Positions 2,638-53,000 of a DNA stretch of 64,000 nt are shown in pieces. Made by a program: the position numbers and the translations under genes. This DNA comes from a virus (lineage: Duplodnaviria > Caudoviricetes). The stretch spans positions 1,462 to 65,461 of the IMG/VR virus record IMGVR_UViG_3300045996_004591; one strand, written 5' to 3'. Each line of letters starts with the position of its first letter. Positions within the stretch are counted from its first letter, which is position 1. The notes beneath the pieces are model-generated. The model worked only from the letters and a program-made list of their open reading frames with translations, was not told the DNA's origin and did not search any database.

Positions 2638-2981
2638 CAGGTCTCCACGTGCGCCGAAACCGGGAACGGCCAGCAGGTGAGAGGACATTCGACAGCCTTG
2701 CTTGCCACAGGCGCAGCGGCAGCCTGCAGGCGATCGCGCGCAGCTTCCTCGGGGAAGTGGGCCGCCACGTAGGCCTCGACTTCTTCCCGGGTGCAACCGT
2801 AGGCTTGCAGTGCCTCACGGGCCGTCTTGCCAAAGGTGCCGCGGGCAAGGCGAACAACGCTGTCGCCGCAGCGCACACAATCGCGACGCTCGCCGATACC
2901 CCACATCGTGCGCGAATCGTTTTGGACAGCGCGGTACGCGGTCACCTTGCGCTTGATGTGGCGCTTGCACGGGTCGATCAT
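2637..2981 (-). CDS. Hypothetical protein
   Basis: MIDPCKRHIKRK...WPFP; translationally coupled. Confidence 0.6.
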   Translation of the reverse strand: MIDPCKRHIKRKVTAYRAVQNDSRTMWGIGERRDCVRCGDSVVRLARGTFGKTAREALQAYGCTREEVEAYVAAHFPEEAARDRLQAAAAPVASKAVECPLTCWPFPVSAHVET

Positions 2982-3628
2982 GGCTTGAGCCTCCGGAACG
3001 AAACGGCCCACACCCACGGGTTCGCATCCCAGCTGCCGGGGCCGTTGATGGATTCCCACAGGTGCATGTAGGCCGTTCGCGGGCTCGCGTAGTCGCTGAA
3101 AATCGTGCTCGCCTGCGTGGGCGACTCTTTGCTGCGCTCAATGCCTTCCGCCCAGCAGTCGGCCTCGCTGATGGCCTGCAGCCGCTCGACGCGCACGCCG
3201 GTCACTTCCAGCAGAATGCGGCTGGCCCAGCGCGGCATGAACATTGACGGACGTAGCTTGCCTGTGCATTCATCGCGCGGCGCCATACCGTTGGCCTCGT
3301 ACCAGACCGAGTGCGGTTGCAGATCGCGCGGAGGCATGTCGTCGCACCGCCCGTCGTCGCCTGTCGTGCGCCATGCTTCGCGCACCCAGAGCCGGTCGCC
3401 TGGCTGGCCGTAGGGGCATGCGAACAGATTGCCGCCGCTACCGTGCCCGGTTGCGGCCAGCACCCAAGCCCAGTTGCCCTGGGAGTTTTTGTACGGCGCG
3501 ACTGGACTCAGCCCGGCACCACCATTCGGCTGGGGCTGCGGCTTCACCACTCGGCGCGTCTGCGTCTTCGTGCCGGCCAGCAGCGCGCGGATCATGGGAG
3601 CGGAAAAGAGAATGGGCCGCTCGGTCAT
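2978..3628 (-). CDS. ASCH/PUA-like phage protein
   Basis: MTERPILFSAPMIRALLAGTKTQTRR, GDRLWVRE, PSMFMPRWASRI, WDANPWVW motifs. Confidence 0.85.
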   Translation of the reverse strand: MTERPILFSAPMIRALLAGTKTQTRRVVKPQPQPNGGAGLSPVAPYKNSQGNWAWVLAATGHGSGGNLFACPYGQPGDRLWVREAWRTTGDDGRCDDMPPRDLQPHSVWYEANGMAPRDECTGKLRPSMFMPRWASRILLEVTGVRVERLQAISEADCWAEGIERSKESPTQASTIFSDYASPRTAYMHLWESINGPGSWDANPWVWAVSFRRLKP

Positions 3629-3660
3629 ACTGCGCATTTCAACGAAAAAGGGGAATCCAA

Positions 3661-3909
3661 ATGGGACTGGACCAACTCTTCAAAGTACCGCAGGTGCAGC
3701 TGGAATCGGTTCGCGCTGCCGTGGTGAAGCGCGGGCTGGACCCGGCCAGTTTTCAGTTGGTGGCAAAGAACAACTTTCTCGCGGAAGGCCCGTTCAAGAC
3801 CATCATTACCGTGACTCGCGGTACCAAGTCTCTGGACTTCGAGCGCGTTTTCGACGGCAAGTGGGTCGACGATTTCAAGCAGGCTCTCGAGCGCGGCGAA
3901 TTCGACTGA
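3661..3909 (+). CDS. Antisense moron, 82-aa hypothetical protein
   Basis: SD AAGGGGA then ATG; globular-looking sequence; opposite strand to the operon. Confidence 0.7.
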   Translation: MGLDQLFKVPQVQLESVRAAVVKRGLDPASFQLVAKNNFLAEGPFKTIITVTRGTKSLDFERVFDGKWVDDFKQALERGEFD

Positions 3910-4052
3910 CGGCAGTTGGAGCAAGCCGCACTGCTCCAGCGACCTAATCCTGTTGGCCGTGTCGGCGGCTGCCGGGATGGGGCGCTCGGTCATACTGTGG
4001 GTTCCAAAGAAACTAGTCGGCCATGCTTAAGACTGGCCTGGAGGGGCGGGGC

Positions 4053-4688
4053 ATGAAAAGTCGGTCGTTTGATGCGGGATGGGCACTCGTCCTGCTGTGG
4101 ATAACCGCGGCGCTGGGTATCTGGTTTCTCGCCAGCATTGCTGACAATGTGGATAGGTGGCTGATGGCAAACCAGCACCTGTCCGCGTGGGTTCAGGCGG
4201 TCGGCACCATAGCGGCGATCCTGGCAGCGGCGTGGATCGCACGACGACAGGAGCGCAAGGCGGCCCACGCGGCAAAAAGTATTGCGGTAAAGAAGGCGGT
4301 GACCTTTGCGGCTACCGTTCAGAATGGCGCCGAAGAGGTGCGCGAGAAGGGCTCGATGTGGACCCAGCACTCCAAATTGCGGCGCCTTGTGCTCGAAGAG
4401 GCAGTGCTGGACGCGAGGACTATCGACGTGGCTTTGCTTAACCTCGAATGGCTCGTGGCTGTGCACGGGCTGCGAAGCATCGCGGTGCAGATGTGCGAAG
4501 TGATGCGTCAGTTCGAAAGCAGTTCCGAACGTGAGATTGCTGCTAGCGACCCCCGTTACCAGGGTTTGGCTCGATCCATTACCTACGAGAAAATGGCGAC
4601 TGCCATCGCCGAATACGAGCCAAAGATCCAGAACCTCATCGAGATCTTGAGAAAGAAGCATCCTGGTGTCGATGCGTATGCAGAATAG
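4053..4688 (+). CDS. Antisense moron, membrane-anchored protein with two N-terminal TM segments
   Basis: GGAGGG SD; LSAWVQAVGTIAAILAAAWIARRQ TM motif; visibly lower GC. Confidence 0.8.
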   Translation: MKSRSFDAGWALVLLWITAALGIWFLASIADNVDRWLMANQHLSAWVQAVGTIAAILAAAWIARRQERKAAHAAKSIAVKKAVTFAATVQNGAEEVREKGSMWTQHSKLRRLVLEEAVLDARTIDVALLNLEWLVAVHGLRSIAVQMCEVMRQFESSSEREIAASDPRYQGLARSITYEKMATAIAEYEPKIQNLIEILRKKHPGVDAYAE

Positions 4689-4696
4689 ACCGGCAC

Positions 4697-6340
4697 TCAT
4701 GCGACCAGCCTTTCGGGCTGCTGCTCGCGGTAGTTCGCCTCGACATAGGCCCTGGCCATCGGCGGGCAGACGCTGTTGCCGCACATACGCACCTGGGCCG
4801 TCTTCGTCAGCACCCGGCCGTCGCCGCCGCGGTCGATCTGGTAGCTCTCCGGAAATCCCTGCGCGCGATACAGCTCGCGCGGGCTAAGCATGCGCATGCC
4901 GATGTCGACGATGGCATACGGCTCCCCCTTGACCATCACCAGGCCGAAGCGGTGCTTGGTGGTGACGGTGTGCAGCGGCTCGGCCAGCTGGGGGTCTTGG
5001 TCGGTGCCGTAGTACTTGATGAGGAAGGCGCGCACCTCGGCGTGGTGCAGACCCTGCGCGCTGATGGTGTGCAGCGGTTCGGCCATCGACTGGGCGCCCT
5101 TGCTGGTGCCTCGCAGCTTGATCAGGTTGCTGGTGACGATGGCGGTGTCGGCCTTCGACGTGATGGTCGCGGTGGGCTCGGCCGCACCGCGCGGGCGGCT
5201 CTGGCCAGCGCGCCCGCCGACGCCCACAAGTGCGGCTGTGACCAAGTGGTGGTGGTCTTGCGTCGTGATCGTGCTGATCGGCTTGTCCATCGGGGTGCCC
5301 GGGGTTTCGTGCCCGCCGTAGTGCTTGGCTATGAACGCCTGGACGACCGCGTGCCTGTTCTCCGTGGTCGTGGTGCGCAGCGGCTCGTTCGCGCGCCAGG
5401 TAGCAGTGCGAGCCCCCTTGTTGTCGACGGCGATGAGCGATGGGGCGATGAGCGCACGCTCTCCGCGGTTCGCACCGGTGATCGTGCGAAATGGCTCATG
5501 CAGAGATTCGATGCGATCGCCGCCCTGATGCGTCAGAGGAACGATGAACGGGTCTGCAGCGTTCACCACGTAGCGCATCATCCCCTTGGCTATGCGCCGC
5601 ATCGTGGCCTCGGCCAGCGGGCGCTCGCGCGTGAAGATGGACGGGCAGTGGGTGTCCCAGTCAATGCACTCGGCCGCCGTGCGGTATGACTTGAGCTTCT
5701 TGGCCTTCACCGGCAGGCTGTCGGGCGGGCCGTGCGTGGCCGCAGGGAAGACGATGGGCTCGCCATCGCACCTGGCCACTAGGAATAGGCGCTTGCGAAT
5801 CGTGGGCGTGCCCAGATCGCAGGCGCGGTCCTCCTTGAAGTCCACCACGTAGCCCAGGTTCTCCAGCGTTGACTTCCAGCGCTTGAAGGTGCGGCCCTTT
5901 CGCAGCGGGCAGGGTCGGCCGTCGGTGCCCAGCGGACCCCAGTTCTGAAATTCCTCGACGTTCTCCAGGAAGATGACGCGGGGGCGCACGAGCTTGGCCC
6001 ACTTGATTCCCACCCACGCGAGGCCGCGGATCTTCTTGCTCACCGGCTTGCCACCCTTGGCCTTGCTGAAGTGCTTGCAGTCGGGGCTCATCCACAGCAT
6101 GCCCACCGGGCGGCCATCACACACGGCCACGGGGTCGACCTCGAAGACGTCGCTGACGTAATGCAGTGTCTGGGGGTGGTTGGCCTGGTGCAGTGCAACG
6201 GCCTCTGGGTCGTGGTTGATGGCGATGTCGACGTGCCGGCCAATGGCCTGCTCGATGCCGGTAGAGGCGCCACCGCCGCCTGCAAAAAGGTCGATGACGA
6301 GGTCATCTTCGATGGGAAGGACGAACTGGGGTGTGAGCAT
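4697..6340 (-). CDS. DNA cytosine-5 methyltransferase
   Basis: DLFAGGGG (I), SPDCKHFS (IV), ENV (VI), RKRLF (VIII), RAQGFP and GNSV (IX-X). Confidence 0.95.
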   Translation of the reverse strand: MLTPQFVLPIEDDLVIDLFAGGGGASTGIEQAIGRHVDIAINHDPEAVALHQANHPQTLHYVSDVFEVDPVAVCDGRPVGMLWMSPDCKHFSKAKGGKPVSKKIRGLAWVGIKWAKLVRPRVIFLENVEEFQNWGPLGTDGRPCPLRKGRTFKRWKSTLENLGYVVDFKEDRACDLGTPTIRKRLFLVARCDGEPIVFPAATHGPPDSLPVKAKKLKSYRTAAECIDWDTHCPSIFTRERPLAEATMRRIAKGMMRYVVNAADPFIVPLTHQGGDRIESLHEPFRTITGANRGERALIAPSLIAVDNKGARTATWRANEPLRTTTTENRHAVVQAFIAKHYGGHETPGTPMDKPISTITTQDHHHLVTAALVGVGGRAGQSRPRGAAEPTATITSKADTAIVTSNLIKLRGTSKGAQSMAEPLHTISAQGLHHAEVRAFLIKYYGTDQDPQLAEPLHTVTTKHRFGLVMVKGEPYAIVDIGMRMLSPRELYRAQGFPESYQIDRGGDGRVLTKTAQVRMCGNSVCPPMARAYVEANYREQQPERLVA

Positions 6341-20519: not shown

Positions 20520-20762
20520 ATGGCCTTCGTCATCCCTCCCGGTCGCAACGCCACCCTGGCCGACGCATGGGCCAAGCACAAGGCTGCCCAGCGCGCCGAG
20601 ACCAAGGCCTCGAAGGTGAAGGCAAAACCGGAAGCTGCCGCGCCGGTGACGAAGGCCGACGTGCATAAGAAACCCACCAAAGTGACGAAAGCACCCGCCG
20701 ACCTGCATAAAAAGGCCGGGAAAGTGCATACGTCGGCGAAGAAGAAGACCGCCAAGAAATGA
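20520..20762 (+). CDS. Lys/Ala-rich basic protein
   Basis: Repeated KA(D)VHKK-like units; composition like histone H1. Confidence 0.55.
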   Translation: MAFVIPPGRNATLADAWAKHKAAQRAETKASKVKAKPEAAAPVTKADVHKKPTKVTKAPADLHKKAGKVHTSAKKKTAKK

Positions 20763-21231
20763 CGTTTGACCGTCCCACCATCGAAGAGCGCCGCGAGCGC
20801 CGCGCCGCCGAGCGCGCCGCCAACCTGAAGGCGCTGGCCACCACCACCTTGCGGCCCGTGAGCTCGGGACAGTACGCAGGAACCACCACCGGCCCGGCGC
20901 CCAAAGAGAACGTGCTGGAGAGCGCCGCCTACGAAGCCGCCGTGCGCCGCCTACCGTGCGCCAGGTGCGGCATCGTCGGGTTCACCCAGTTCTGCCACAC
21001 CGACATGGGCAAGGGCATGGGCCTCAAGACCGATGTTCGCCGCGGCTGGGCCGGGTGCGGGCCGCGCGACACCATGCCCGGTTGCCACTGGCTGATCGGC
21101 ACCAGCGGCCAGATCAAGCGCGCCGCGCGCCGGATATCCTCGAAGCAGGTTACGCCGCCTGGACGCGCGCCGAGGTGCTGCGCCGTGGCTGGTGGCCCAA
21201 GAAGTTACCCCTGTGGGAGGAAGCGACGTGA
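20759..21231 (+). pseudogene. NinG/DUF968-like Zn-binding protein with apparent 2-bp insertion near 21134
   Basis: LPCARCG..QFCH..GKGMGLKTD..C..CH; CGG ATATC CTC shifts the frame; the other frame ends at a GTGA overlap at 21228-21231. Confidence 0.6.
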
Positions 21232-21578
21232 CCTACGCCGAAGCCGTGGACCTGCGATCGCGCCAGCTCGCAGGCGCCAGCATCGCCCCGGAGTTGATAG
21301 CCCGCGCCATTGCCGTGATCAAGGCCGGCCGCCCGATGCGCCGAGGCGGGCGCCCTTCGGAACTGGATCGCGGGTTGCCGCGGGATCTGCTCAAGGCGCT
21401 GGTGGACGGACCGATGGAACGCGACGACTTCTATGCCTTGGCCGCTCGGCTGTACCAAGGCGCCGGGCGCAAGAAAGGCCCGTACTCGCGCATCAACCAG
21501 ATGATGAATGAGGGCTGGATCGTCGCCCAGGTGGTCCTGACGCCCGAGGGCATGCAAAAAGTAGGAGCTGAGTCGTGA
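21228..21578 (+). CDS. Hypothetical protein
   Basis: GGAGG SD, GTG start, coupled. Confidence 0.6.
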   Translation: MTYAEAVDLRSRQLAGASIAPELIARAIAVIKAGRPMRRGGRPSELDRGLPRDLLKALVDGPMERDDFYALAARLYQGAGRKKGPYSRINQMMNEGWIVAQVVLTPEGMQKVGAES

Positions 21579-35347: not shown

Positions 35348-36121
35348 ATGACATTGCGCATCAGCTCAGGGCTTCGGAACTACCTCGCCAAGTACGGCAG
35401 CCTGTCGCAGGCGCTGACCGGCGGCAAGCTGCTGGTCTATTCAACCTCGCAGCCCGCCAGCGCGGATGCGGCACCCGCCGGAACGCTGCTGTCCGTATGG
35501 ACCGACAACTCGGGCGCCCACACGGCCGAGGTGCTGTCAGTCGGGACGGTGGAGCTGACCGGCGGCGCATCGGGGTCCGTTGACACCATCACGGTGAACA
35601 GCGTGGACGTCCTGGGCGGCGCGGTGAGCTTCGACACCACCTTGACGATCACCGCCGCGGCTGTGGCGGCCAAGATCAACGCGTTCAGCGGTATCACCGA
35701 CTACAAGGCCACGTCCTCGGGCGCGATCATCACCATCCAGGCCCTGAACGGCCGCGGCACGGCGCCCAACACCTTCGTGGTGGCCTCCACGGTGACGACC
35801 ATCACCAAGACGGACACCAACATGGCCGGCGGTGTGGCATCGGCCAACGGCCTGAAGTTTGGCGCACCGGCCGCGGGCCTGCTGCCCAAGCTGTCGACCC
35901 AGACCTGGTCGGGCGTGAACGTCGCCACCGGGACTGGTGGCTGGTTCCGCCTCGTCGGCCCGGTCGCCGACTCGGGCGCGCTGGACTCGCTCGAGCAGCA
36001 GATCCGCGTGGACGGCTCGATTGCCACCAGCGGCTCGGACATGAACCTGAGCAGCACCGCGTTCGTGATCCTGGCCACCAGCGGCATATCGCAGTTCAAC
36101 CTCAACGTCCCGGCTGCCTGA
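35348..36121 (+). CDS. Tail-associated virion protein
   Basis: AGGAG SD; QPASADAA...GTGGWFRL...RVDGSI. Confidence 0.7.
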   Translation: MTLRISSGLRNYLAKYGSLSQALTGGKLLVYSTSQPASADAAPAGTLLSVWTDNSGAHTAEVLSVGTVELTGGASGSVDTITVNSVDVLGGAVSFDTTLTITAAAVAAKINAFSGITDYKATSSGAIITIQALNGRGTAPNTFVVASTVTTITKTDTNMAGGVASANGLKFGAPAAGLLPKLSTQTWSGVNVATGTGGWFRLVGPVADSGALDSLEQQIRVDGSIATSGSDMNLSSTAFVILATSGISQFNLNVPAA

Positions 36122-36134
36122 AGCGAGCCAGGGC

Positions 36135-37064
36135 ATGAGTGATGTGGTCCTGCTGACCCTGCCAGCCGTTACCCTAGACGCTATCGGCTGGACAGGCACG
36201 GGCGCAATCACCGGGACCGCCGACCTCACGTTGCCAGCGCTGACGCTGAGCGTCGAAAGCTCAATCAACGGCAGCGCATCGCTGACCCTGCCAGGGCTGA
36301 CGATGTCGGCGGTGGGCCACAACGGCATCACCGGCACGGCATCCATGTCGCTGCCGATGCCCACGCTGCAGGCTACGGGCGTGACCGGCATCACCGGCAC
36401 CGTGAACGCGAGCCTCGCCGCGCTGGCACTGGCGGCCGAGGGTTACACCGGCATCCTGGGCACGGCCGACCTCACGCTGCCGATGCTGGAGATCACCGCC
36501 AGCGGCGGGACCATCACCGGCACGGCGAACCTCACCATCCCGGCGCTCCAGCTGGTGGCCACCGGAACCACGGCCGCCGTCGGCACCACCAACGCCTGGG
36601 CCCTGCAGACCGAGAAGATGGCGCTGTCCACCTATGACGATCTGCCGGCCTTCAATTCACTGGTCAACTTCAACGGCGTGTACCTGGGCGCGACGAGCTC
36701 GGGGATCTTCGCCATCACCGGCACGGCCGACGGCGCCGCGGCGATCGACGCCGTCCTGCGCACCGGGATGACCGATTTCGGCACCAGCCACCTGAAGCGC
36801 GTGGAAGCCGTGTGGTTGCAGTACGAAACCTCCGGGGTGCTGGAGCTCACCGTCATCACCGACGGCGGCGAGCGGACCACCTATGCGCTGCCGCCCACCG
36901 GTTCCACCGGTCTGCACGGCCATCGCCAGAAGATCGGGCAGGGCCTGGAGTCCAAGTATTGGGGCTTCGAGGTGGCCAACGTCGACGGCGCCGACTTCAG
37001 CCTGGACGTGATCGAGCCGAAACCCCTCATCCTTCAACGGCGCCACGGTGGCGGGAACGCATGA
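36135..37064 (+). CDS. Virion protein with GTAxLTLPxL repeats
   Basis: About seven ~19-aa repeats followed by a TDFG..LKRV domain. Confidence 0.7.
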   Translation: MSDVVLLTLPAVTLDAIGWTGTGAITGTADLTLPALTLSVESSINGSASLTLPGLTMSAVGHNGITGTASMSLPMPTLQATGVTGITGTVNASLAALALAAEGYTGILGTADLTLPMLEITASGGTITGTANLTIPALQLVATGTTAAVGTTNAWALQTEKMALSTYDDLPAFNSLVNFNGVYLGATSSGIFAITGTADGAAAIDAVLRTGMTDFGTSHLKRVEAVWLQYETSGVLELTVITDGGERTTYALPPTGSTGLHGHRQKIGQGLESKYWGFEVANVDGADFSLDVIEPKPLILQRRHGGGNA

Positions 37065-41058: not shown

Positions 41059-44000
41059 ATGGCCGACACCAATCCGTTTGCCGATCCCAACTTCGGCGCG
41101 GACGCCGCAAACCCCTTCTCGGACCCGAGCTTCGGCAAGCCGTCCGGCGCGATTCGCCGTCTTGCCGACAAGGCCGTCGGCTTCGGTGCCGGTGCTGCCG
41201 GCGCGACCAAGGCCATCGCTGACGTCGCCGGTGCGGGCAACCCCGTCTCCGGCGTGCTCGACAGCGCCACCAGGGGCCTGAACAGCCTGCTCAGCCCGGA
41301 AGCGCAAGCCGACCAGGCGCAGCAGCAGGCCATCATGGCCGAGGCCAACGGCAAGGGCCTCTGGGAAGGCGTGAAGGCCGGCGCCCGTGCGTTCGGTGTC
41401 GCCCCCGTGCAGACGGCGGTGACCGGACTGGGCTCAGTGGTTCCTACCGTGGCGGCAGGCCTGGCCACCGGCGGCGCGTCGGTTCCGGCATCGCTGGCCA
41501 CCATGGGCGCGATCGGCCTGGCGCAAGGGGCGGGTACCGTGAAGGGCGCCATCTACGACGACGTGCGCGAGCGCTCCACCGATGCGGGCATGAGTCCCGA
41601 GGATGCGCAGGCCGCGGCGACGCGTGCGCAGGAGTTCAGCGGCCCCAACGCGGGCAATATTGCCATCGGCGCCGGGCTGGGCGTGGGTGACGCGCTCACC
41701 GGTGTGACCAAGGTGGCCACTTCGATGCTGCGCCGCGGCGTGGGCAAGGCCGCGCTGGCCGAGGGCAGCACGCGCGGCGTCATGGCGCGCACCGGGCTTG
41801 GCATCGCGGGCGAAATGCCGCTGGAAATTGCCCAGGGCGGGCAGGAGAAGTACGCCGCCAACGTCGCCTCCGCGCGCCAAGGCTTCGATGTCGACCCGAT
41901 GGAGGGCGTCGCGGCGCAGGGCACGCTGGAAGGATTGGCCGCAGCCGGTCCCGGCGCTGCCTTCGGTGCGTTCAACAAGGCGCACCCTGCACTAGTCACC
42001 CCGCCGCCGCCCGCGGCACCGCCCGCCGGCCCGATGACCGCCGCGCTGATCGCCGGTGGCCAGTGGAAAGCGCTGGGCGTTGCCGATCCGCAGGACGACC
42101 TCGCACGCCAGAAGCGCATCAGCGAGACCGGGCAGGCCTGGCAGGACATCGCCCCGACGACGCCGGCCGAGGATCTGGCCGCGCAAAAGCCACTCGAGCA
42201 GCGCGCCTCCGAGGAAGCCGGCGCCGCCGCCTCGCGCGCCACGGATGAACGTATTGCCGCTGTGGGCAAGCAGTGGCAGGACCTGGGCATCACGGACCCG
42301 TCTACCGACCTGCAGCGCCAGCGCGCGGGCCTGACCCCGGCCGAAGAGCGCGGCGTCGACGCCAACGCTGGCCCCCTGTCCGGCGCCGCTGCGATGGCGC
42401 TGAATGCCGGTGTCACGCAGGGCATGGAAGCGCAGAACGCCGAGACCGCCAACGACATCACCGACGGTGGAACCCCGTTTAAGGGCGCCATTCCCGCGCG
42501 CCGCGCTGCCGATAAGGCCGGGGAGGGCTGGAGCGTGGTGAAGGTGCAGGACGGCTATGTCGTTCGCCCCTCGCCCGAAGTCGTCCGGACCGCCGAGAGC
42601 GGCAAACCCACCGAACCTGCGAAGGCCACCGATGCGAAAGCCACCGCTGCCCAATCCGCGCCCGCCGCGGCTGCCCCGGTTCCTGAGACTGGCCGCACAG
42701 CGACTGCGCTATCACCCGCACCAGTTCCAGCGGCTGGACCTGCTGGCACTGGCGCTGACGCCAACCCGGCACTGAAGGGAGTTCCCAATGGTCAGCGACA
42801 AGGAGAAGGTACGCCACCTGCTGGAGTCGGCGCGGCGCGAGTCCAACCTGGCCCTGATCGAGCGCAACCGCCGGCAGTACGAACAGAAGCGCCAGGCAAG
42901 ACGGCTGATGCAGCAGGCGCTGCAGGCGGCGCAACGCAAGGAGCCAAGCCGCTGACACTGGGCTCGATGCCCAACCAGGCCGAGCCTGTGACGGTCAAGG
43001 ACGGCGTGATCCACGTAGGCAAGTTGCCGGCGCTGAACTTCGACACGGGCGCGCCGATCGTCGCCCCCCGGGACGCCACGGCCACGCAGATCAAGCAGCT
43101 GCTCAAGGACGCGGGCGCGGTCGGAAACAGGCAGAGATTCTTTGGTGGAACGGAGCAAACCAGTGCAGCGCAACCCCAGTCGCAAGACACTCAAACGCCA
43201 GTTGCAGCGCGACCTGGACCGCAGAAGGCCGAAGCCGGAGCAGCCGCCGCGCCAGCAGGAAACACCGCCGGCGTGGAAGCCGCTGGGGTAGCACGCCCGG
43301 CCAACTGGCGCACCAACTTCATGGTTGCCACGCAGGTCGCCAAGAGCGTCGGAATCCCCTACGAGCAGGGCCGCAAGCTGGCCGATCTGGTGGCGATGGT
43401 GGACGCGAAGGATGGCAAGGCGCCGCCCAACGAGAGCGACCAGGACCGCAGCAACCGCGAGTTTGCCGAGAACTATGGGCGCGTGACCGGGAACATCAAG
43501 GCGTCGACGGACAAGGAGATCGACCGCGCGATCATGTTCTCCGAGAAGCAGTTCTCCAACCTGCAACCCAAGGCGTGGGCCGGCGACGAGCAGGCCAAGC
43601 GCATGATGACGGCCTATGAGCAGGAAGCCGAGGGCCTGAAGCAGGAGCAGCGCATCCGCAAGGGGCAGGACCCCGTCACCGGCAAGAAGCCGGTTACGCC
43701 GCAGGTGCCGCCCGCCGCCAGCGCCAACACCGTATTCACGCAGGATGCCGCGGCAGTGGCGCGCGCGCTGATCAAGGCCCGCCTGGCTAAGCCCGCCGCC
43801 ACGACGGACACCACCCCTGCCGCCGAAGTGCTGCGCGGCGCCGTGGACGTCATGCCCGCGGCCGACAAGGCCACGCTCGAGGCGCACTACGGTGAGAAGC
43901 CCGGCACTGCCGCCTTCTTCGACCGCGTGCGCGATGACGTCGCCACCTTCGTCAACAAGGGTGCCGCGGCCATTGCCTCGGGTATTCGCAGCATCATCAA

Positions 44001-47000
44001 GAGCCTGGCCGAGGGCGTGCTGGCGCTGGGCATCGTGTTCAACCCGATGGGGCTGAAGACCGACTACAGCTTCGATCTGCCCGCCGTCCACAAGCAGACC
44101 ATCACCCAGACCCGGCAGGTGAAGGCCGAACCGCCGCTGGAGGCGATCGCCGGCATGTCCGGCCCAGCCATCACGGTCTACGAGAACATGGCCCCCACGG
44201 CCAAGACCTCGGGCAAGGGGTTCATCATCGCGGACAAGCCCGCGGGCATGATGCACGTGTTCGCCGCCGACGGCTCGCTGATCGCGCAGGACACAGCGCT
44301 GTACGGCAAGGACAAGGGCGACCGGATGGGCGTTTCGTCGCTCAAGGGTGGCCCGAAGGTGACCCCGGCCGGCGGGTTCGCGCTGCGCTGGGCTGAGAGT
44401 GAATACGCCGGCGGCCAGCAGCTGGAACTGGTGGGCTCCGAGGACGCGGACGGCGCGGTCATTGCCGTGCACGCCGCCTGGCTGGGCGACCCGAAAGAAA
44501 AGCGGGCCGAACGCCTAGCCAGCCTGACCGCCGATGACAACCGCATCAGCTACGGGTGCATCAACAGCGCCCACGACACATTCCTGAACAAGGTGCTGCC
44601 CGAGGCCCCGAACCTGGACGGCGGCATGGCCTTCGTGCTGCCCGACGAGTCGGACGCGGGCGCCCTGTTCCCGGCCGGCACGACCACCGAAACCACCACC
44701 ATCGAGGCAGCCGAGCGCAACGCGCGCGAGGGCACCGTGGGCGGCCAGCAAATGGGCATGGGCGGGCGCGCTCGCACCGCAACCCGTTCGGGCACGCCGC
44801 CGCGCGGGCTGGATCCAGAATTGACGCAGGCCGGCATCACCATGGCCGGCTTCCACATCGAGGGCGGTAGTCCGACCTTCGCGTCCTATGCCCGCGCCAT
44901 GCTGGACGACCTGGGCGAGGCCGTGCGCCCGTACCTGAAAAGCTGGTACATGGCCGTCAAGTACGACCCGCGCGCTGGAGATTTCAGCGCCAAGATGAGC
45001 ACGGCGGGCTTCGTGGAGGAATTTGACCTCGCGCACATCGCGGCGCCGTCCGACAGCCCAGCGGTTGAAAAATCCGGCCCGAGCGCCGATACTGGAGACT
45101 CAAATGCCGCAGCAACACGCCGCCTGGATCAGTCAGGCACGAGCCCACTGGAAGGAATACCGTCCGGCGATGTACGCGCGCCTGCAGGAAAGCGGCCGGC
45201 TGGAGCAGGAGCTGCAGGAGGCCGCAACGGCGACCAGCCAGGCGGTGGCCGTGCTGACCCGGCAGGGCGCGACCTGGCAGGAGGCCTGGGAGCAGACCCG
45301 GGAGCAGTACCTGTTTCCCCCAGAGGAAACGCCGACGCAGCGCCAGCCGGAAAGCCTGGGGTTCAAGGCCCACAAGGGGCTGATGCGCGACCTGGGCGAG
45401 CTGAAGATGCCGGGCGAGAAGTAGCGCCCAACGCGCCGCCCATCCCGGCGCCGCAGTACACCCCGCCCGCAGACTTCACCATCGACGCCGAGCTCGCGCT
45501 GGGCGAAGGCGGGCAAAAGACCAAGTTCCGCAACAACGTCGCGGCGATCACTCTGCTCAAGAAGCTGCTGGCCGAGGGCTTGCAAGCCTCCGCGGACGAG
45601 CAGCAGGTGCTGGCCAAGTACGTCGGCTGGGGCGGCCTGCCGCAGGCCTTCGACGCCAACAACCGGGAATGGGCCAACGAGCACGCCCAGCTGAAGGAAC
45701 TGCTGGACGACAAGGAGTTCTCGGCCGCGCGCCGCTCGACCCGCTACGCCCACTACACCAGCCGCGAAATCATTCAGGATGGTATCTACGCGGCGCTGCG
45801 CCGCTTTGGCTTCACCGGGGGCCGCGCGCTGGAAGGCGGCGCCGGCGTGGGCAACTTCATCGGGCTCATGCCGCAGGACCTGCGCGCTGCCGGCCGGGTG
45901 ACGGCCATCGAGCGCGAGCCGATCGCCGCGGGCATTGCCCGCAACCTGTACCCGAACCAGAGCGTGCAGCTGGCCAACTTTACCGAGTTCAAGGGCACGG
46001 ACGGTTACTTCGACGTGGCGATCGGGAATCCTCCCTTCGCCAGCGACCCGCAAACCGACCGGTCCGGACGCAAGCACCTGTCAGGGCTGTCTCTGCACAA
46101 CTACTTCTTCGCCAAGGAAGTGGACATGCTGCGCGAGGGCGGCATCCTGGCGCAGGTAGTGACCAACAGCTTCCTGGACGCCGCAGGAGACAAGGCGCGC
46201 AGCTACATCAGCGACCGCACCCGGTTCCTGGGCGCCATCCGGCTGCCGAACAACGCATTCAGCAAGAACGCCGGCACCGAGGTCACCACCGACCTGATCT
46301 TTCTGCAAAAGCGCCCTGAGGCCGAGTGGGGCACCAAAGCCACCCGCGCCGAGGCCAAGGCCTGGCTGGACGTTGTCAAGGTCACCGACGCGCGCAAGGG
46401 CGTGGCCTTGAACATCAACCAGTATTTCAAGGACCACCCGGAAATGATGCTGGGCGACTTCGGCGCCCACGGCACGATGTATGGCCCAGACCAGCCGGCA
46501 CTCGTTGCCCGCAAGGGGCAGGACACGTTGGCGATGCTCAAGGAAGCCGTCAAGCGCCTGCCCGATGCGGTGTACGTCGACCGCGCGACGCTCGGCACCG
46601 ACGCCGCCGTCGACGCCGCGATCAAGGCGCTCACCCGCCCGCCCGTCCAGGAGGGCGGCTTCTTCGTGGACGAGCAGGGCATCCTGACCCAGCGCGTGAA
46701 CGACATAGCCGGGGAGGCGCGCGGGCGCGAAATCAACGCCGAGACCCAGTGGACGGCCAAAACCAAGCTGGGCGAAGCCGGCGCGGCCAAGATCCGCTCG
46801 CTCGCTGCGATGCGAGTCACCCTGCGCTCGCTACTGGCGGCCGAACTGGCCGACGAGGTGGACAAGGCCACCGCACTGCGCGCCCAGCTGAACACCCAGT
46901 ACGACGGCTACACCAAGGAGCACGGGCTGCTGAACGACACGGCGACGGCGCGGGTGTTCGATGACGACCCGGACTTTCCGCTCCTGCTGTCGCTGGAGCA

Positions 47001-50000
47001 CAACTATGTGCCCGGCATCGGGATTGCCGCGGCCAAGCGCCAGAACCTCAAGCCCACCAAGAGCACGGCGACCAAGTCGCCCATCTTCAAGCGCCGCGTG
47101 GTCGACAGCCGCAAGGCCGTGCAGAAGGTGGAGACGCCTGCCGATGCGCTGGCCGTTTCGATGGCCGAGCGCGGCAAGCTCGATACCGCCTACATCGGCA
47201 AGCTGCTGGGCAAGGCGCCCGAGGACGTGCTGGGCGAGTTGAGCACCGGCGCCAAGCCGCTGCTGTTCCTGGACCCGGCCACCGACGAATACGTGCTGCG
47301 CGACGCCTACCTGTCGGGCAACGTGCGCGAAAAGCTCGCGCAGGCCAAGGCCGCGGGCTTGTCGACCAACCAGCGTGCGCTCGAGGCGGTGCAGCCGCAC
47401 GACGTCGGCGCCCACGAAATCAGCGCCCGCGTGGGCTCGCCCTGGGTGCCCACGGCGGTCTACGAGGACTTCGCTAAGGAACTGTTCGGCGAGGGCACCA
47501 CCGCCTCGATCAAGTACGTCAAGCTCAATAGCTCCTATGCCGCGTACATTCACGCCGGCTCGGACGTCAACGCCACCAACAAGTGGGGCACGAAAGACTA
47601 CAGCGGCCCGGAACTGATCAGCGCGCTGCTGAACAACCGCACCATCAAGGTCACGTGGACGGACAAGGAAGGCACGCACGTGGACCAGCCGGCCACCGAG
47701 CAGGCCAACCTGAAGGCCCAGGAGATCCGTGAACGCTTTCAGGACTGGCTTTTCAGCGACGCGGCCCGATCCGAAGTGCTGGTACGCGCCTACAACGACA
47801 CCAACAACAACTATGTGACGCGCGAGTACGACGGCACGTGGATGACGTTCCCGGGCAAGGTCCCCAATGACGTGATCAAGTTCCGCAGGCACCAGCGCAA
47901 CGCGATCGCCCGCATCGTGCAGGACCGCACCGCGCTGCTGGACCATGTGGTCGGCGCCGGCAAGACCTTCACCGTGGTGGCCGCCGCAATGGAGCTGCGC
48001 CGCACGGGCCTGGCGCGAAAGCCCATGGTGGCCGTGCCGAACCATCTGGTCAAACAGTGGGCCGCCGACTTCTACCGCCTGTACCCGGGCGCCAACATCC
48101 TCACGGCCACCAAGAAGGACTTCGAGAAGATCAACCGCCGCCGCTTCCTGGCCAAGATCGCCACCGGCGACTGGGACGCCGTGGTCATCGCGCACAGCTC
48201 GTTCGGGTTCATCAAGCCCGGCACCGAGTTCGAGGCCAGCTTCAACGACCGGCAGGTGGCCCTGATCATGGAAACGATCAAGGCCGTGCAGGAAGAAGAA
48301 GGCGACGAGCGCGCCAAGAAGCGCACCGTCAAGCAGTTGGAGGGCATGCAGGAGCGCCTGGAGAACCGCATTGCCAGCCTGCGCGACAAGGCCATGGACG
48401 ATCTGCTGGACTTCGAGCAGTTGGGCGTGGACCAGCTGTTCGTGGACGAAGCGCACATGTTCAAGAACCTGATGTTCTCCACCAAGATGCAGGGTGTGCA
48501 GGGGCTGGGCGACGCCAAGGGCAGCCAGCGCGCCTATGACATGTACGTGAAGTCCCAGGAGGTGATGGAAAAGAACGGCCGCGGGCAGGGGCTGGTGTTC
48601 GCCACCGGCACGCCGGTATCCAATTCGCTGGCCGAGAAGTACCACATGATGCGGTACCTGATGCCCCGGCAGATGCAGGAGCTGGGCTTCCAGAGCTTTG
48701 ACGCCTGGGCCAACACCTTCGCCAGCGTCGAGCAGGTCTGGATGCAAAAGCCCAGCGGCGATGGCTACAAGGCCAGCAACCGCATGAGCAACTTCGTGAA
48801 CGTGCACGAGCTGCTGAAAATGTTCGACCAGGTGGCCGACACGGTCACCATGGACGACATCAAGAAGGCCTACCGCGAGGAAAACGAGGGCAAGGAGTTC
48901 CCCATCCCGCCGCTGAAGACCGGGCGCCGGCAGCCCGTGTCGCTGGTCAAGTCGCCCGCGCAGGAGGCCTACATGGCCGACATCGCCGCGCGCGCGAAGG
49001 TGCTGGAAAGCCGCAAGGGCCCGCCGCAAAAGGGCGAAGACAACATCCTGGTGATCATGGGCGACGCCCGCAAGGCCGCCATGGACGTGCGCCTGGTGGA
49101 CCCGGACGTGACCGAGCGCGAAAAGGGCGGGCGCATTGACAAGGCCGCCGACAACATCCTCACGCGCTATCGCAAGTTCAACGCCGTGCGCGGCACCCAG
49201 CTGGTGTTCTCCGACCTGGGCACGCCCAAGAAGCACGCCCAGGCCGAACTGAAGGAGTACGACGCGCTGCAGGCCCGCATCGACGCGGCAACCGACGACG
49301 TGCGGCTGCGCGCATCGCTGGGCGCCGAGGAAGCCCAGGCGCTGGTGGATGACGCCGAGGATGCCCAGGAGGCCATGGACAAGCAGGGTCCGGACTGGCT
49401 CACCGCCGTCAAGGCCGCCCAGCGCGGTTTCAGCGTCTACGACGACTTGAAGGATGCGCTCATCGGGCGCGGCATCCCCGAGCACGAAGTCGCCTTCATC
49501 CACGACTACAACACCGACGAGCGCAAGGCTACCTTGTTCCGCAAGGTCAACGCCGGCGAGGTGCGGGTGGTGATCGGCTCCACCGCCAAGATGGGCGCGG
49601 GCACCAACGTGCAGGAGCGCGCCGTCGCGCTGCACCATCTGGATGTGCCGTGGCGCCCGTCGGACGTGGAACAGCGCGAGGGCCGTATCGAGCGGCAGGG
49701 CAACAAGCTGCTGGAGGAAATCCCGGGCTTCGAGGTAGAAATCCTGGCCTACGTGACGCAGGACACGCTGGACATGCGCATGTGGCAAATCCAGGAGGTC
49801 AAGCTCAAGATGATCAACCAGCTGCGCACGCGGCAGATTGACCGGGACATCGACAACGCCTTCGAGGATATGGAAATGTCGGCCGGCGAAATGCAGGCAG
49901 CGGCGACCGGCAACATGGATTTGCTGCTGGAGATCCAGGCCCGCGCGGACATCAAGAAGCTCGAGCAGAAGGCGCGCAGCTTCGACGCGCAAAAGAGCGA

Positions 50001-53000
50001 CCTCATCAACCGCAAGAGAAGCGCCGCCGCCCGGCTCGCGCAGCTGCCCGCGCAGATCAAGAGCGCCGAGGTGCTGGCCGAGGGCTCCACGCAGTACGCG
50101 CAGGCGATCGAGAAGCAGACCGCTGCTTTCAGCGTCAACCTGGACGGCACGGACTTCACTGACCGCCAAGCCGCCAGCGCGTACCTGCTGGAGAAAATCG
50201 ACGCGCGCATTGCCGACCCGGACAAGAAGCCCGGCGAGGATGGTGAGCCGGCTACCAAGGCCGCACCGCTGGACGTGAGCATGAACGGCGAGCGCTACAC
50301 GGCGCGCGCCAAGCTGCAGGAGGCCTGGAGCAACGCCGCCGGCGACCGCGACCCCATCCAGTGGCAGTACGAGGGCAAGACCTACAACCGCCGCAGCGCG
50401 ATCGCCACGGCCATCCGGCAGCCCGTGGCCGACGCGTTGGCCGACGAAACGCAGGTGGTGCTCGGCAAGATCGGGCCGTTCGACGTGATCGGCGAGGGCC
50501 AGCAAAGCAAGTTATGGGGCTCCATGATCGAAGTCGTTCTCTCCTACAAGGGCGAGAAGATGGACAGCACGTTCAGCGCGGGCGAGAAGCCTGACACGCT
50601 GAAGATGGCCGAGCAGATCGCCTCATGGGCTGACCGCAAGGCCTATGGCGCCAAGTTCGAGCTCCAGCACCTGCAGGGCAGCCTGCGCAGCGCGCAAGAA
50701 GCCGCCGCCGATCTGGAAAAGGCCGAAGACCTGGGCGAGTGGCCCGACCGGCCCAAGCTGGAGGCCGCGCGCGAGAAGCACAAGGCGATTCTGGCCCGCC
50801 TGAACGGCGCCGGCGCCAAGCCCTTGACCGAGGCCGGCGACTACGACCCGGCCGGCGACAGCTCCGAGGCGGGCAACACCACGGACGTGGTCTTCTCCAA
50901 GAAGCCCGACACCGCCAGTCAGCGCGCCGCCGATGCGGCCACCCGCATGCAGCCCAGCGCCGTGCAGCAGGCCGTCTCCGAACTGACCCGCGACTGGCTG
51001 CGCAAGCCGGAAATCGTCATCCTGGAGAACATGCGCGACGATAAGGTACCGGCCGCGGTGCAGCGGGAATACCAGCGCCAGGAAAGCCAAGGCGGCTCAG
51101 GCGATGTTCAAGGCTTCCACATGAGCGGCACGGTTTACATCGTGTCCGACTCGATGAGGAACGCCCGGGACGTGCAGGAGGTGCTGTTCCATGAATCGCT
51201 GGGCCACTTCGGCATGCGCGGCTTCTTCGGCAAGGCGCTGAACCCGATGCTCGAGGAAATCGTCGCTACCCGGAAGTTCCAGGTGGCCAAGAAGGCGCGC
51301 GAGTACGGGCTGGACATGAGCAAGGGCGCCGACCGGCTGATGGCGGCTGAGGAAGTGCTGGCCGAGCTGGCGCAGACCCGGCCCGAGTTGAGCATCGTGC
51401 AGCGCGCCATTGCGGCGATCCGCACGTGGCTGCGCGAGCACGTGGCCGCGTTCAAGGACTTGGCGCTGACGGACGCGGAAATCATCAACCGCTTCATCCT
51501 GCCGGCGCGCGGCTTCGTGGAGCGCGGCACCTCGGGCAAGGCGACGTTCACCCGCGGGCCGGCAAGCCGTCCGCAGGCATCGCTTGAACCCCGCACCGAC
51601 CGGGTGCAGTTCAGCAAAAAGTCCGTCTTGACCGGCCAGGACATCCCCAGCACGTGGCAGGGCCCGGACGCCTCCAAGCTGGACGACGTGATCTATTCGA
51701 TGCAGGACAAGCACGTCGACACCCGCCGGGTGGTGCAGGCGGTGCGCGCGGCGATCGGCACCATTGACGACCAGCAGGACCCGTACCTGCAGGAAGAGCT
51801 GTTCCACGGCCGCGCCGCAATGGCCACCAAGGAGTTCCTGGAAAAGAGCCTGCGCCCGCTGCTGAACGACCTGCAGGCGCGCAAGGTGGATATGTCCGAC
51901 CTCGAGGAATACCTACACAACCGGCACGCCGAGCGCCGCAACATCCAGGTGGCCAAGGTCAACCCGGCCATGCCCGACGGCGGCTCCGGGATCAAGACGG
52001 CCGACGCCCGTGCCTACCTGGCCGCTCTGCCGGCCGACAAGCGCGCCGCCTACCAGGCGCTGGCGCAGCGGGTGGACGCCATCAACCGCGAGACCCGGGC
52101 CCTGCTGGTGTCCTCCGGGTTGGAAAAGCAATCCACCATCGACGCCTGGCAAGCCGCCTACGGGGATGAGTACGTGCCCCTGATGCGCGAGGACATGGAC
52201 AACGCCTCCACCGGCATCGGCCAGGGCTACAGCGTCAAGGGCAGCGCCAGCAAGCGCGCGCTGGGCAGCAACAAGCCGGTGGCCAACATCATCGCCAACA
52301 TCGCGCTGCAGCGGGAAAAGACCATCACCCGGGCCGAAAAGCGCCGCATCGGCGAGGCGGTGTACGGCCTGGCCCTGAAGGCGCCGAACCCGGAGTTCTG
52401 GTTCGCGGTGGATCCGAAGCTGCAGCAAAACCCGGCCAACGTCACCGCGGCGGCCATCCAGTTGATCAGCATGGGGCTGGACCCGATGGACGCGGCCAGC
52501 ATCGCCAAGGAGCCGACCCAAAGCTACATCGACCCGACCACCAAGCAGGTGACCCAGCGCATCAACCCGGCGCTGCGCAGCATGAACAACGTGCTGGCCG
52601 TTCGGGTGGACGGCGAGGACAAGTTCGTTTTCTTCAACCAGAAGGACGAGCGCGCGATGCGCATGGCCACGGCCTTGAAGAACCTGGACGCCGACCAGCT
52701 GGGCACCGTCATGGGCACAGTGGCCAAGATGACTCGGTATTTCTCGGCCATCAACACCCAGTACAACCCGATCTTCGGGGTGACCAACATCACGCGGGAC
52801 GTGCAGACGGCCCTCCTGAACCTCAACTCGACGCCCTTGAAGGACCACAAGGCCGAGGTGATGAAGCACATCCTGCCGGCGCTGCGCGGGATCTACATCG
52901 ACCTGCGCGACCACCGAGCCGGCAAGCAGCCGACGTCCTCCTACGCGCAGATCTTCGAAGAGTTCCAGCGCGAGGGCGGGGCCACGGGCTACCGCGATAT

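Follow-up and report, generated by a model that had tools for sequence, protein, structure and literature searches.

Putative pass-through reading frames antisense to two inserted genes in a leftward phage operon

Introduction

Phage morons are accessory cassettes inserted between conserved genes, known from the lambdoid and HK97 literature, and the classical ones are described as carrying a promoter and a terminator of their own. To our knowledge, descriptions of morons say nothing about the reading frames of the host operon across the insert. Between neighbouring genes, termination-reinitiation at ATGA or TGATG junctions couples two protein-coding genes.

Fully overlapping genes on opposite strands have also been reported. 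In the Pseudomonas phage Fc02, whose olg1/olg2 lie opposite gene 10, an early lytic-operon gene fully overlaps an opposite gene that the lysogen transcribes, and each of the two overlapping genes is reported to have given exclusion when cloned (PMC9936078). GC-rich bacteria contain long antisense shadow ORFs, some of which are reported to be translated and under purifying selection (PMC8850804; bioRxiv 10.1101/724807). A literature search found no description of a coupled antisense pass-through arrangement such as the one proposed here.

Architecture of the locus

The window, by which the whole 64,000-nucleotide stretch of phage DNA analysed is meant, contains a leftward early operon in which two genes, plusA and plusB, lie on the plus strand between a methyltransferase gene and an ASCH-like gene (Table 1). 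Judged from their sequences and those of their relatives, they are two genuine accessory genes reversed inside the operon. The original prediction had placed two plus-strand genes there, and its coordinates are confirmed, with homologues and third-position substitutions adding to the case. The ORFs of the interval consist of the two plus genes and their antisense frames, nothing else; the latter, here called bridge frames, are by coordinate arithmetic the codon-for-codon antisense of the plus genes.

Table 1. Features between and around the methyltransferase and ASCH-like genes, in window positions
Feature	Position	Strand	Description
ASCH-like gene	2978-3637	minus	Downstream operon gene; phrog_874, E = 9e-78; ATG 3628 or in-frame ATG 3637
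Repeat copy R1	3612-3647		True ASCH-like start region; plus-strand CATACT 29 nt before plusA ATG
Bridge frame 2	3625-3993	minus	122 codons, ATG 3993 to TGA 3627-3625; in-register antisense of plusA
plusA	3661-3909	plus	82-aa soluble protein; AAGGGGA upstream of ATG
Repeat copy R2	3977-4012		Duplicated ASCH-like 5' end, some 7 codons and the preceding 19 nt
Bridge frame 1	3990-4700	minus	236 codons, ATG 4700 to TGA 3992-3990; in-register antisense of plusB
plusB	4053-4688	plus	211 aa; GGAGGGG upstream of ATG; alternative ATG at 4023
C5 cytosine DNA methyltransferase	4697-6340	minus	Upstream operon gene; ends GCA TGA, with ATG 4700 overlapping the stop

Homologues of plusA are found at 63% identity in two loci of different context (L081 and L082) and at 90% in a third (L083), which has the same divergent arrangement and whose contig stops within plusA. 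In two homologue comparisons, substitutions fall on the three sense codon positions as 5/2/16 and 19/18/52, and the synonymous to non-synonymous counts are 12/6 and 31/30 in the sense frame and 1/17 and 5/56 in the antisense frame. A homologue of plusB is 58% identical, and the family, with 67 representatives at E ≤ 1e-3, occurs in viral contigs and in bacterial genomes, with prophages in Pseudomonas, Janthinobacterium and Paraburkholderia as examples. Over 30 pairs of its members the differences by sense codon position are 1681/1252/3249, with synonymous to non-synonymous counts of 1733/2235 in the sense frame and 348/3620 in the antisense frame, and W46 is invariant across 21 diverged proteins. 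The AlphaFold2 model of plusB is all-helical (pLDDT 88.2), and its hydrophobic N-terminal segments, read by eye, may form two membrane helices. Neither gene received a function from Pfam, PHROGs, PADLOC or NCBIfam. A fold search with the plusB model returned nothing at E ≤ 1e-3; the best viral match is an ORF of the HP1 int-cI region (E = 5.6e-3, TM 0.53), and the PDB matches are generic helical bundles.

The composition of the interval deviates from its surroundings, with a GC content of 58% in 3600-4700 versus 66% across the window, and the sequence evidence supports plusA and plusB as inserted accessory genes. Among signs of the transposon or integron type, the interval ORFs include no recombinase gene, and none of the eight inverted-repeat pairs in 2900-5000 flanks either cassette. 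No T-tract terminator follows plusA or plusB. On the minus strand, bridge frame 1 contains two hairpins resembling terminators (4675-4658 and 4610-4595), which weigh against the pass-through reading proposed below. A plus-strand CATACT had been put forward as a possible -10 element for each gene; its spacing before the plusA ATG is kept in the 63%-identical L081 homologue, in an unrelated context, and no sigma-70 consensus promoter is present in 2900-5200.

The methyltransferase assignment is given by PF00145 (E = 5.7e-31; 108.6 bits, the cut-off being 22) and phrog_116 (E = 1.4e-101). The ASCH-like gene matches no Pfam family at E ≤ 0.1, the ASCH model included, and its name comes only from the way in which a 60-nt stretch of matching DNA is annotated in the Klebsiella phages RothC and RothD. 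In eight loci a methyltransferase gene lies upstream of an ASCH gene on the same strand, with a gap of -3 to 1587 nt that holds nothing, same-strand small ORFs or an antisense gene; the two genes overlap or abut in L040 and L071. In L004 an unrelated 71-aa antisense gene lies between them, and the operon strand reads TGATG, 78 open codons and then ATGA. The boundary is thus variable in relatives, as the original prediction had anticipated, and the bridge frame of L004 is coupled. The further proposal of that prediction, that cassettes are added serially at this boundary, goes too far: the insertions are real and the boundary varies, but serial addition is one possible history among several.

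The region as a whole has no close relative among 50,697 phage records, where the best DNA match reaches 74% and covers the methyltransferase only. A distant DNA search with 3600-4720 and a tblastn search of plusB against the same 50,697 records gave no match, and single-protein scans with plusA and plusB recovered no relatives in viral contigs and none in the first genome scan. A search of sequencing runs listed no RNA run containing the region. In a soil sequencing run, contigs cover 3912-4062 (12 differences) and 4680-4881; a relative therefore has the plusA-repeat-plusB and plusB-methyltransferase junctions.

Junctions, repeat and bridge peptides

On the plus strand, TCAT (ATGA on the minus strand) stands at 4697-4700, 3990-3993 and 3625-3628. 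These three ATGAs link the methyltransferase stop to the start of bridge frame 1, its stop to the start of bridge frame 2, and the stop of the latter to the ASCH-like ATG 3628. Every coordinate predicted for the three exact junctions and the two minus-strand ORFs proved right, as did the observation that the second bridge frame begins MTERPI like the ASCH-like gene. An SD-like tetramer is absent before ATG 3993, 3628 and 3637.

The 15-mer said to be common to the two downstream junctions, CGCTCGGTCATACTG, indeed occurs exactly twice in the 64 kb, at 3618-3632 and 3983-3997, and 2 of 100 shuffles gave two matches at up to two mismatches. A direct repeat of 36 nt (83% identity, spacing 365) has this 15-mer as its core. 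Its copy R2 provides the middle ATGA junction and, on the plus strand, places a CATACT 56 nt ahead of the plusB ATG. Among the matches listed in a scan for the junction motif, at least 117 viral stretches, none encoded a relative of ASCH, the methyltransferase, plusA or plusB, so these matches are taken as chance.

ATGA is found at the start in 50 of 80 ASCH homologues, because codon 2 begins with A in a conserved M-T/K start; an SD-like tetramer precedes the gene in 58 of the 68 homologues with an aligned start and is absent in that of the window. The exact coupling, which had been named as the signal, stands as a description, since the junctions exist, but the two downstream ATGAs are not independent: the M-T/K start dictates the ATGA, and the middle junction is its copy.

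The bridge peptides, as far as sequence comparison goes, are not conserved. The sense-versus-antisense codon log-odds are -45.5 for bridge frame 1 and +49.8 for plusB, and the identities of the bridge frame 2 peptide are 41/58 and 26/82 versus 52/58 and 52/82 for the plusA protein. The antisense substitution counts given above for the plusB family and plusA reveal no purifying selection on antisense amino acids. Neither peptide matches a Pfam or PHROGs family, and His, Arg and Cys are abundant in both, a bias to be expected from antisense reading.

Chance expectation within the window

The original prediction had cautioned that in-register antisense frames are often open, and this is the case: such a frame is fully open in 30 of 60 window genes, and 58-78% of stretches of the relevant lengths are open. 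For the window's own plusB, the locus-calibrated probability of having no antisense stop is about 0.09. About 40% of the window's gene starts read NTGA. An ATGA at the upstream gene's stop was considered as a special feature and dropped, against a background of 23-28% of gene ends even without an overlapping called gene. When the spacer phases of the window are varied, a complete chain still forms in 4 of 81 variants. Given these open frames and variants, the window on its own, at about 5% given its motifs, is suggestive only, and the signal comes from its relatives.

Open antisense frames in the plusB family

The analysis of the family covered 73 viral loci, 44 of them with gene calls, which were made with our own codon-based caller (successful on 127 of 274 sources). 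In 35 of the 44 called loci the plusB-like gene runs antisense to its surroundings, with an opposite-strand gene on either side, and the full coupled chain is present in 10 of these 35, leaving about 70% without it. A complete chain is found in 9 of 31 actual loci versus 8 of 248 controls phase-shifted by C insertion, or, with called starts only, in 6 of 31 versus 5 of 248. Codons that read as antisense stops (TTA, CTA, TCA) are missing altogether from 20 of 44 members versus 2.2 expected after locus calibration, a number that none of 200,000 simulations reached; among 411 control genes of similar length, 115 are without them versus 116.2 expected. A second sample, drawn from bacterial genomes, began with 46 loci, of which 15 were tested after the removal of 6 duplicates and the exclusion of 25 without gene calls; 7 of the 15 lack such codons versus 1.14 expected. 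The open members share only 25-34% identity pairwise, and the open state is therefore not a matter of recent shared descent.

The phase with the neighbouring genes is also maintained. The tail-to-tail spacers are 8 nt in the window, L213 and L255, 5 nt in L235 and L231, and 2 nt in L240; all six equal 2 modulo 3, and their sequences are unrelated. The start codon that overlaps the upstream gene's stop is in register at 13 of 23 loci (p = 0.019); where the spacer is at most 60 nt, this holds for 9 of 12. The window fits this pattern at its methyltransferase end, where an 8-nt spacer is followed by TCAT. Several chain loci have an SD in front of the downstream gene, which therefore does not depend on coupling to initiate. 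The comparison of relatives that had been suggested as a check thus places open, coupled antisense frames in the plusB family far above the phase-shifted and composition controls; by these counts, family members retain an open antisense frame, in phase with the adjacent genes, far more often than controls do.

Beyond the family, a survey of 91 opposite-strand islands found chains in 13, several of which are miscalled shadows, and with a deletion-shift control it gave 4 of 36 actual loci versus 5 of 288 shifted. Among all opposite-strand neighbours, the share of in-register convergent pairs went from 42/98 to 15/44 and 2/17 as strand calls became stricter. Since this excess shrank, some of the survey cases must have been miscalled, and the case therefore rests on the homology-defined plusB family. 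Four loci (L016, L049, L218, L032) were rejected as antisense cases, being miscalled shadow ORFs. The antisense genes and bridge frames of L004, L051 and L231 have no PHROGs match.

Interpretation

Related phages appear to keep the linked frames open by selection, and the reading to which we incline, if by a small degree, is that plusA and plusB entered the leftward early operon by horizontal acquisition, in reverse orientation between its methyltransferase and ASCH-like genes, and that the bridge frames are selected pass-through ORFs without a conserved product, stop-free and linked by ATGA to their neighbours. Their purpose would probably be to hold ribosomes on the operon message. Ribosomes ending the methyltransferase would re-initiate at the overlapping ATG, translate the antisense of plusB, re-initiate, translate the antisense of plusA and be delivered to the ASCH-like start, which is without a Shine-Dalgarno sequence. 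Ribosomes would in this way continue to cover some 1.07 kb of operon RNA that would otherwise go untranslated, and such cover would guard against Rho-dependent polarity, or against duplex formation with the complementary mRNA of the accessory genes. Both the translation of the bridge frames and their anti-polarity role are what we infer from the arrangement of the frames.

A rather unlikely, if still appreciable, explanation is that these are ordinary open antisense frames whose phases fit by chance, the ATGAs being by-products of the ASCH-like N-terminus and of its 36-nt duplicate, a remnant of the illegitimate or short-homology recombination that inserted a cassette. Much within the window agrees with it: half of the window's genes are open in antisense, as are 58-78% of stretches of the relevant lengths, ATGA or NTGA is frequent at ASCH starts (50/80), at the window's gene starts (about 40%) and at gene ends without a called overlap (23-28%), 4 of 81 phase variants work, and the bridge peptides are unconserved. 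Chance and a scar nevertheless leave unexplained the excess of stop-free members (20/44 versus 2.2 and 7/15 versus 1.14, with controls at 115 versus 116) and of chains (9/31 versus 8/248), and the window shares the selected pattern at the methyltransferase end.

Frames that are kept open by selection and placed like operon genes could also be true antisense overlapping genes encoding functional proteins, as claimed for gene 10 opposite olg1 in Fc02, which offers a precedent (PMC9936078). We regard this as improbable: amino-acid conservation does not exceed what the sense-gene constraint imposes (348/3620, 1/17 and 5/56), and the bridge peptides belong to no Pfam or PHROGs family and have the His-, Arg- and Cys-rich composition of antisense reading. 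The reverse assignment, which takes the minus-strand ORFs for the genuine genes and those of the plus strand for shadows, has in its favour that the minus ORFs are placed and coupled as operon genes usually are, but it is scarcely credible, being contradicted by substitutions that cluster at third codon positions of the plus frames, by the invariance of W46 in 21 diverged plusB proteins, through which the antisense codon has a fixed wobble base, by the confident plusB fold, by SD sequences before both plus genes and by the occurrence of plusA alone in an unrelated context.

If the pass-through reading is real, it explains how tightly coupled phage operons can take up reverse cargo while downstream expression is preserved, and it adds a selective force on the synonymous codons of accessory genes, namely the avoidance of TTA, CTA and TCA. 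Annotators would gain a rationale for long, coupled shadow ORFs as something other than genes or noise, and the insertion of genes into operons could follow a simple design rule; a single base change, silent in the accessory gene, should abolish the effect. That GC-rich temperate phages more generally tolerate reversed accessory genes by means of a coupled, product-free and stop-free frame which the operon strand evolves or retains, and whose sole task would be to hold ribosomes on the transcript, is conceivable, although we stop a little short of favouring it; the opposite strand would then shape the codon choice of accessory genes, and such loci would be dual-use without being dual-coding.

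Comparison with known systems

As in morons, plusA and plusB are independent, lie between conserved neighbours, are lower in GC (58% versus 66%) and have homologues in other contexts. Unlike in the classical ones, the search turned up neither a consensus promoter nor a T-tract terminator, and coupled frames on the operon strand stay open through the insert. The junctions are the same four-base ones that are used in translational coupling (ATGA joins 214 of the 416 overlapping same-strand pairs that our own gene calls gave in the loci retrieved), whereas the coupled units here would be without a conserved product and antisense to real genes.

With Fc02 the locus shares a GC-rich temperate phage and an operon ORF that fully overlaps an opposite gene; there, however, both products are reported as active, and coupling and polarity are not discussed in the part of that source available (PMC9936078). 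Like the shadow ORFs of GC-rich bacteria, the bridge frames are long and in-register antisense to real genes. As far as the accessible portions of those reports extend, they ask for the function of the antisense protein, whereas here the peptide appears unconstrained, and it is the openness and the phase of the frame that seem to be conserved (PMC8850804; bioRxiv 10.1101/724807).

Architecture of the antisense cassettes

The original prediction described a methyltransferase (MTase) gene, two open bridge frames and an ASCH gene joined by exact ATGA junctions across two genes of opposite orientation, here called plusA (82 aa) and plusB (211 aa). All of its coordinates proved correct when these features were located again in the sequence (table). 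The leftward gene run spans roughly 11.9 to 0.2 kb of the window, and the 3600-4700 interval inside this operon has a GC content of 58%, compared with 66% for the window overall. Each minus-strand bridge frame is, codon for codon, the antisense of one of the two plus-strand genes. An SD-like tetramer, present in 58 of 68 homologues, is missing from the window's ASCH-like gene. The two terminator-like hairpins in bridge frame 1, if active, would require translation or antitermination to override them; no T tract follows the stem in bridge frame 2. At the late-region islands, the upstream stop is overlapped by an ATG at 20759 or the frame ends in ATGA or GTGA at the downstream start (21575 and 36135), and a complete chain is absent from both.

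Features of the window (positions in nucleotides)
Feature	Position	Strand	Remarks
C5 methyltransferase	4697-6340	-	PF00145; 3' end GCA TGA; ATG at 4700
Bridge frame 1	ATG 4700 to TGA 3992-3990	-	236 open codons; stop overlaps ATG 3993
Bridge frame 2	ATG 3993 to TGA 3627-3625	-	122 open codons; stop overlaps ATG 3628
ASCH-like gene	2978-3637	-	phrog_874; ATG at 3628
plusB	4053-4688	+	antisense of bridge frame 1
plusA	3661-3909	+	antisense of bridge frame 2
Repeat copies R1, R2	3612-3647, 3977-4012		36 nt, direct
Terminator-like hairpins	4675-4658, 4610-4595	-	T-rich tails; at most 100 nt from MTase stop, inside bridge frame 1
7-bp stem	3917-3938		TGGAGCA, 8-nt loop, TGCTCCA; just past plusA stop, inside bridge frame 2
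Late-region islands	20759-21578, 35584-36138	+	further opposite-strand genes
Giant protein ORF	41059-54333	+	rightward late region; one 4424-codon ORF, strong coding signal (GC3 0.88)

Coding strand and homologues of the embedded genes

The plus strand is the coding strand at both embedded genes. One plusA homologue, 90% identical, is likewise arranged divergently to an ASCH-like gene (locus L083), and another of equal length and 63% identity is found in a different neighbourhood, beside large NTPase genes (loci L081 and L082). In two comparisons, differences by sense codon position are 5/2/16 and 19/18/52, and the ratio of synonymous to non-synonymous changed codons is 12:6 and 31:30 in the sense frame, against 1:17 and 5:56 in antisense. 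Outside the phage context, the plusA homologues adjoin ORFs of 721 aa (L081 612-2777, minus strand) and 643 aa (L082 127-2058, minus strand), which visual inspection marks as P-loop NTPase-like (motifs GSGKST and GQGKTS); these surroundings may be defence-island-like.

For plusB, one 58%-identical homologue and 67 cluster representatives (E<=1e-3) were retrieved, the family alignment shows conserved motifs, and structure prediction confidently gives an all-helical fold (pLDDT 88.2). In 30 pairwise comparisons within the family, the three sense codon positions carry 1681/1252/3249 differences, with 1733/2235 synonymous/non-synonymous changes in sense versus 348/3620 in antisense. Neither gene has a useful match in Pfam, PHROGs, PADLOC or NCBIfam, and fold searches yielded nothing beyond weak matches to helical bundles; among viral proteins, the best was an uncharacterised ORF of the phage HP1 int-cI region. 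Both probably resemble lysogeny-type accessory genes. Short contigs from a soil metagenome run (X1), about 88-92% identical, cover window positions 3912-4062 and 4680-4881; they carry the plusA-repeat-plusB and plusB-MTase junctions, and therefore a relative with the same arrangement exists elsewhere.

A duplicated gene start at the junctions

The 15-bp repeat reported at the two downstream junctions, together with the MTERPI start of bridge frame 2, was found as described. The 15-mer has only two sites in the whole window and forms the core of the 36-nt direct repeat, whose copies are 83% identical and spaced by 365. R2 duplicates the start of the ASCH-like gene (its first seven codons and the 19 nt preceding them), which explains why bridge frame 2 starts with MTERPI, and it supplies the middle ATGA junction. 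It is best read as a duplicated ASCH-like start, a remnant of cassette insertion or exchange at that gene boundary; in the interval around the cassettes, neither inverted repeats nor a recombinase was found with the duplicate. Both copies also contain CATACT on the plus strand, previously suggested as a -10 element for each embedded gene. In the unrelated context of L081, CATACT lies 29 nt 5' of the ATG of the plusA homologue, with the Shine-Dalgarno region kept too, a spacing that hints at such a role for plusA; the hexamer has no visible -35 partner, and a consensus scan found no promoter.

Coupled frames in the window and in relatives

Taken alone, the window's relay exceeds chance only weakly, and shadow ORFs plus a recombination scar would be the expected explanation. 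As the original prediction had cautioned, antisense frames are often open: the in-register one is fully open in 30 of the 60 window genes. The exact coupling that it took as the signal is less telling, since ATGA at the ASCH-like start (50 of 80 homologues) follows from the conserved N-terminus M-K/T-E-R-P-I-L-F and the middle junction is its duplicate. Across the fetched loci, moreover, ATGA terminates 23-28% of genes even without an overlapping called gene, and the complete chain persists in 4 of 81 variants in which the four window spacers were shifted by 0-2 bases. Against shadow ORFs stand the relatives, which were compared for open, coupled antisense frames. At locus L004, a second coupled case at the MTase/ASCH boundary, the two genes are separated by an unrelated antisense gene of 71 aa, and the operon strand reads TGATG, 78 open in-register codons and ATGA.

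The plusB family, surveyed at 73 viral loci of which 44 yielded gene calls with a codon-based caller, argues in the same direction; as the family is defined by homology, the embedded gene is free of strand miscalls. In 35 of the 44, the plusB-like gene is embedded antisense, with an opposite-strand gene on either side, and the coupled chain is complete in 10. As a phase-shift control, 1-2 C were inserted in the two spacers of the usable loci; the actual arrangement has a chain in 9/31 loci versus 8/248 shifted variants, or 6/31 versus 5/248 if the downstream gene is allowed its called start alone. Loci were counted as independent, uncorrected for kinship, which is arguably fair because they are deeply diverged. 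The neighbour calls come from our own caller, which succeeded on only 127 of 274 sources. Among chain loci, the neighbours differ (HD-like, MTase, PAPS-reductase-like, ASCH-like and NinG-like, the last labelled by eye from its N-terminus only), plusB proteins are mutually only 25-34% identical, and the tail-to-tail spacers (8, 8, 8, 5, 5 and 2 nt) are all 2 mod 3 and unrelated in sequence. Under the strict definition, about 70% of embedded plusB loci have no complete chain.

The strongest evidence comes from the antisense-stop codons TTA, CTA and TCA, with each locus calibrated on its other genes. These codons are absent from 20 of 44 plusB-like genes versus 2.2 expected, a count reached in 0 of 200,000 simulations. 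Several of the stop-free genes have low GC3 (0.40-0.57) and use other A-ending codons normally. Among 411 other genes of 150-260 codons, 115 lack antisense stops against 116.2 expected, so the test is unbiased. A second sample of 46 loci from bacterial genomes, reduced to 15 by excluding 6 duplicates of viral loci and 25 without gene calls, gave 7 stop-free genes versus 1.14 expected. The distribution is two-humped: about half of the family has a wholly open antisense frame, the remainder not at all.

Other loci show related layouts. At L226, an ASCH-like gene (upstream, 5339-5977, minus strand) ends in CCATGA, directly followed by an antisense plusB-like gene without antisense stops; the association of ASCH and plusB thus recurs with gene order reversed. 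Unrelated small antisense genes of 86 and 85 aa (L051 4597-4893 and L231 3109-3414) each have a coupled bridge frame, and an identical GGAATCCTAGCATGA, which may be a shared cassette boundary, precedes their differing downstream genes. When opposite-strand islands of all kinds were surveyed, several of the apparent relays proved to be miscalled shadow ORFs, and stricter filters made the phase excess fade.

Interpretation and comparison with known systems

Judged from sequence, the operon-strand frame across plusB-family genes appears to be selected for openness and phase with its neighbours, the peptide being free to vary. Such a pattern is expected of a ribosome relay but not of a functional antisense protein encoded by that frame. 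The window fits the selected pattern: at the MTase end an 8-nt spacer is followed by TCAT, the antisense frame has no stop, and the chain is coupled throughout. The missing SD-like tetramer of its downstream ASCH-like gene is a further point of agreement. The relay originally proposed is partly supported, by family frames that are open and in phase beyond controls and only weakly by the window itself. Going by the textbook view of how transcription and translation are coupled, such pass-through frames might spare the operon Rho-dependent polarity over 1.07 kb of RNA that would otherwise go untranslated and, alternatively or jointly, might block pairing with the complementary accessory-gene mRNA.

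In a full-text literature search, no account turned up of coupled ORFs without a product that run across phage genes inserted in antisense. The closest known case is phage Fc02, for which it is reported that gene 10 of the early operon fully overlaps genes of the opposite orientation that the lysogen transcribes, and that gene 10 and the opposite genes both caused exclusion once cloned (PMC9936078). Translated long antisense ORFs have been reported in Pseudomonas aeruginosa (PMC8850804), and long antiparallel ORFs are the subject of prior work (bioRxiv 10.1101/724807). The arrangement combines known kinds of elements, namely morons, stop/start coupling and antisense ORFs.
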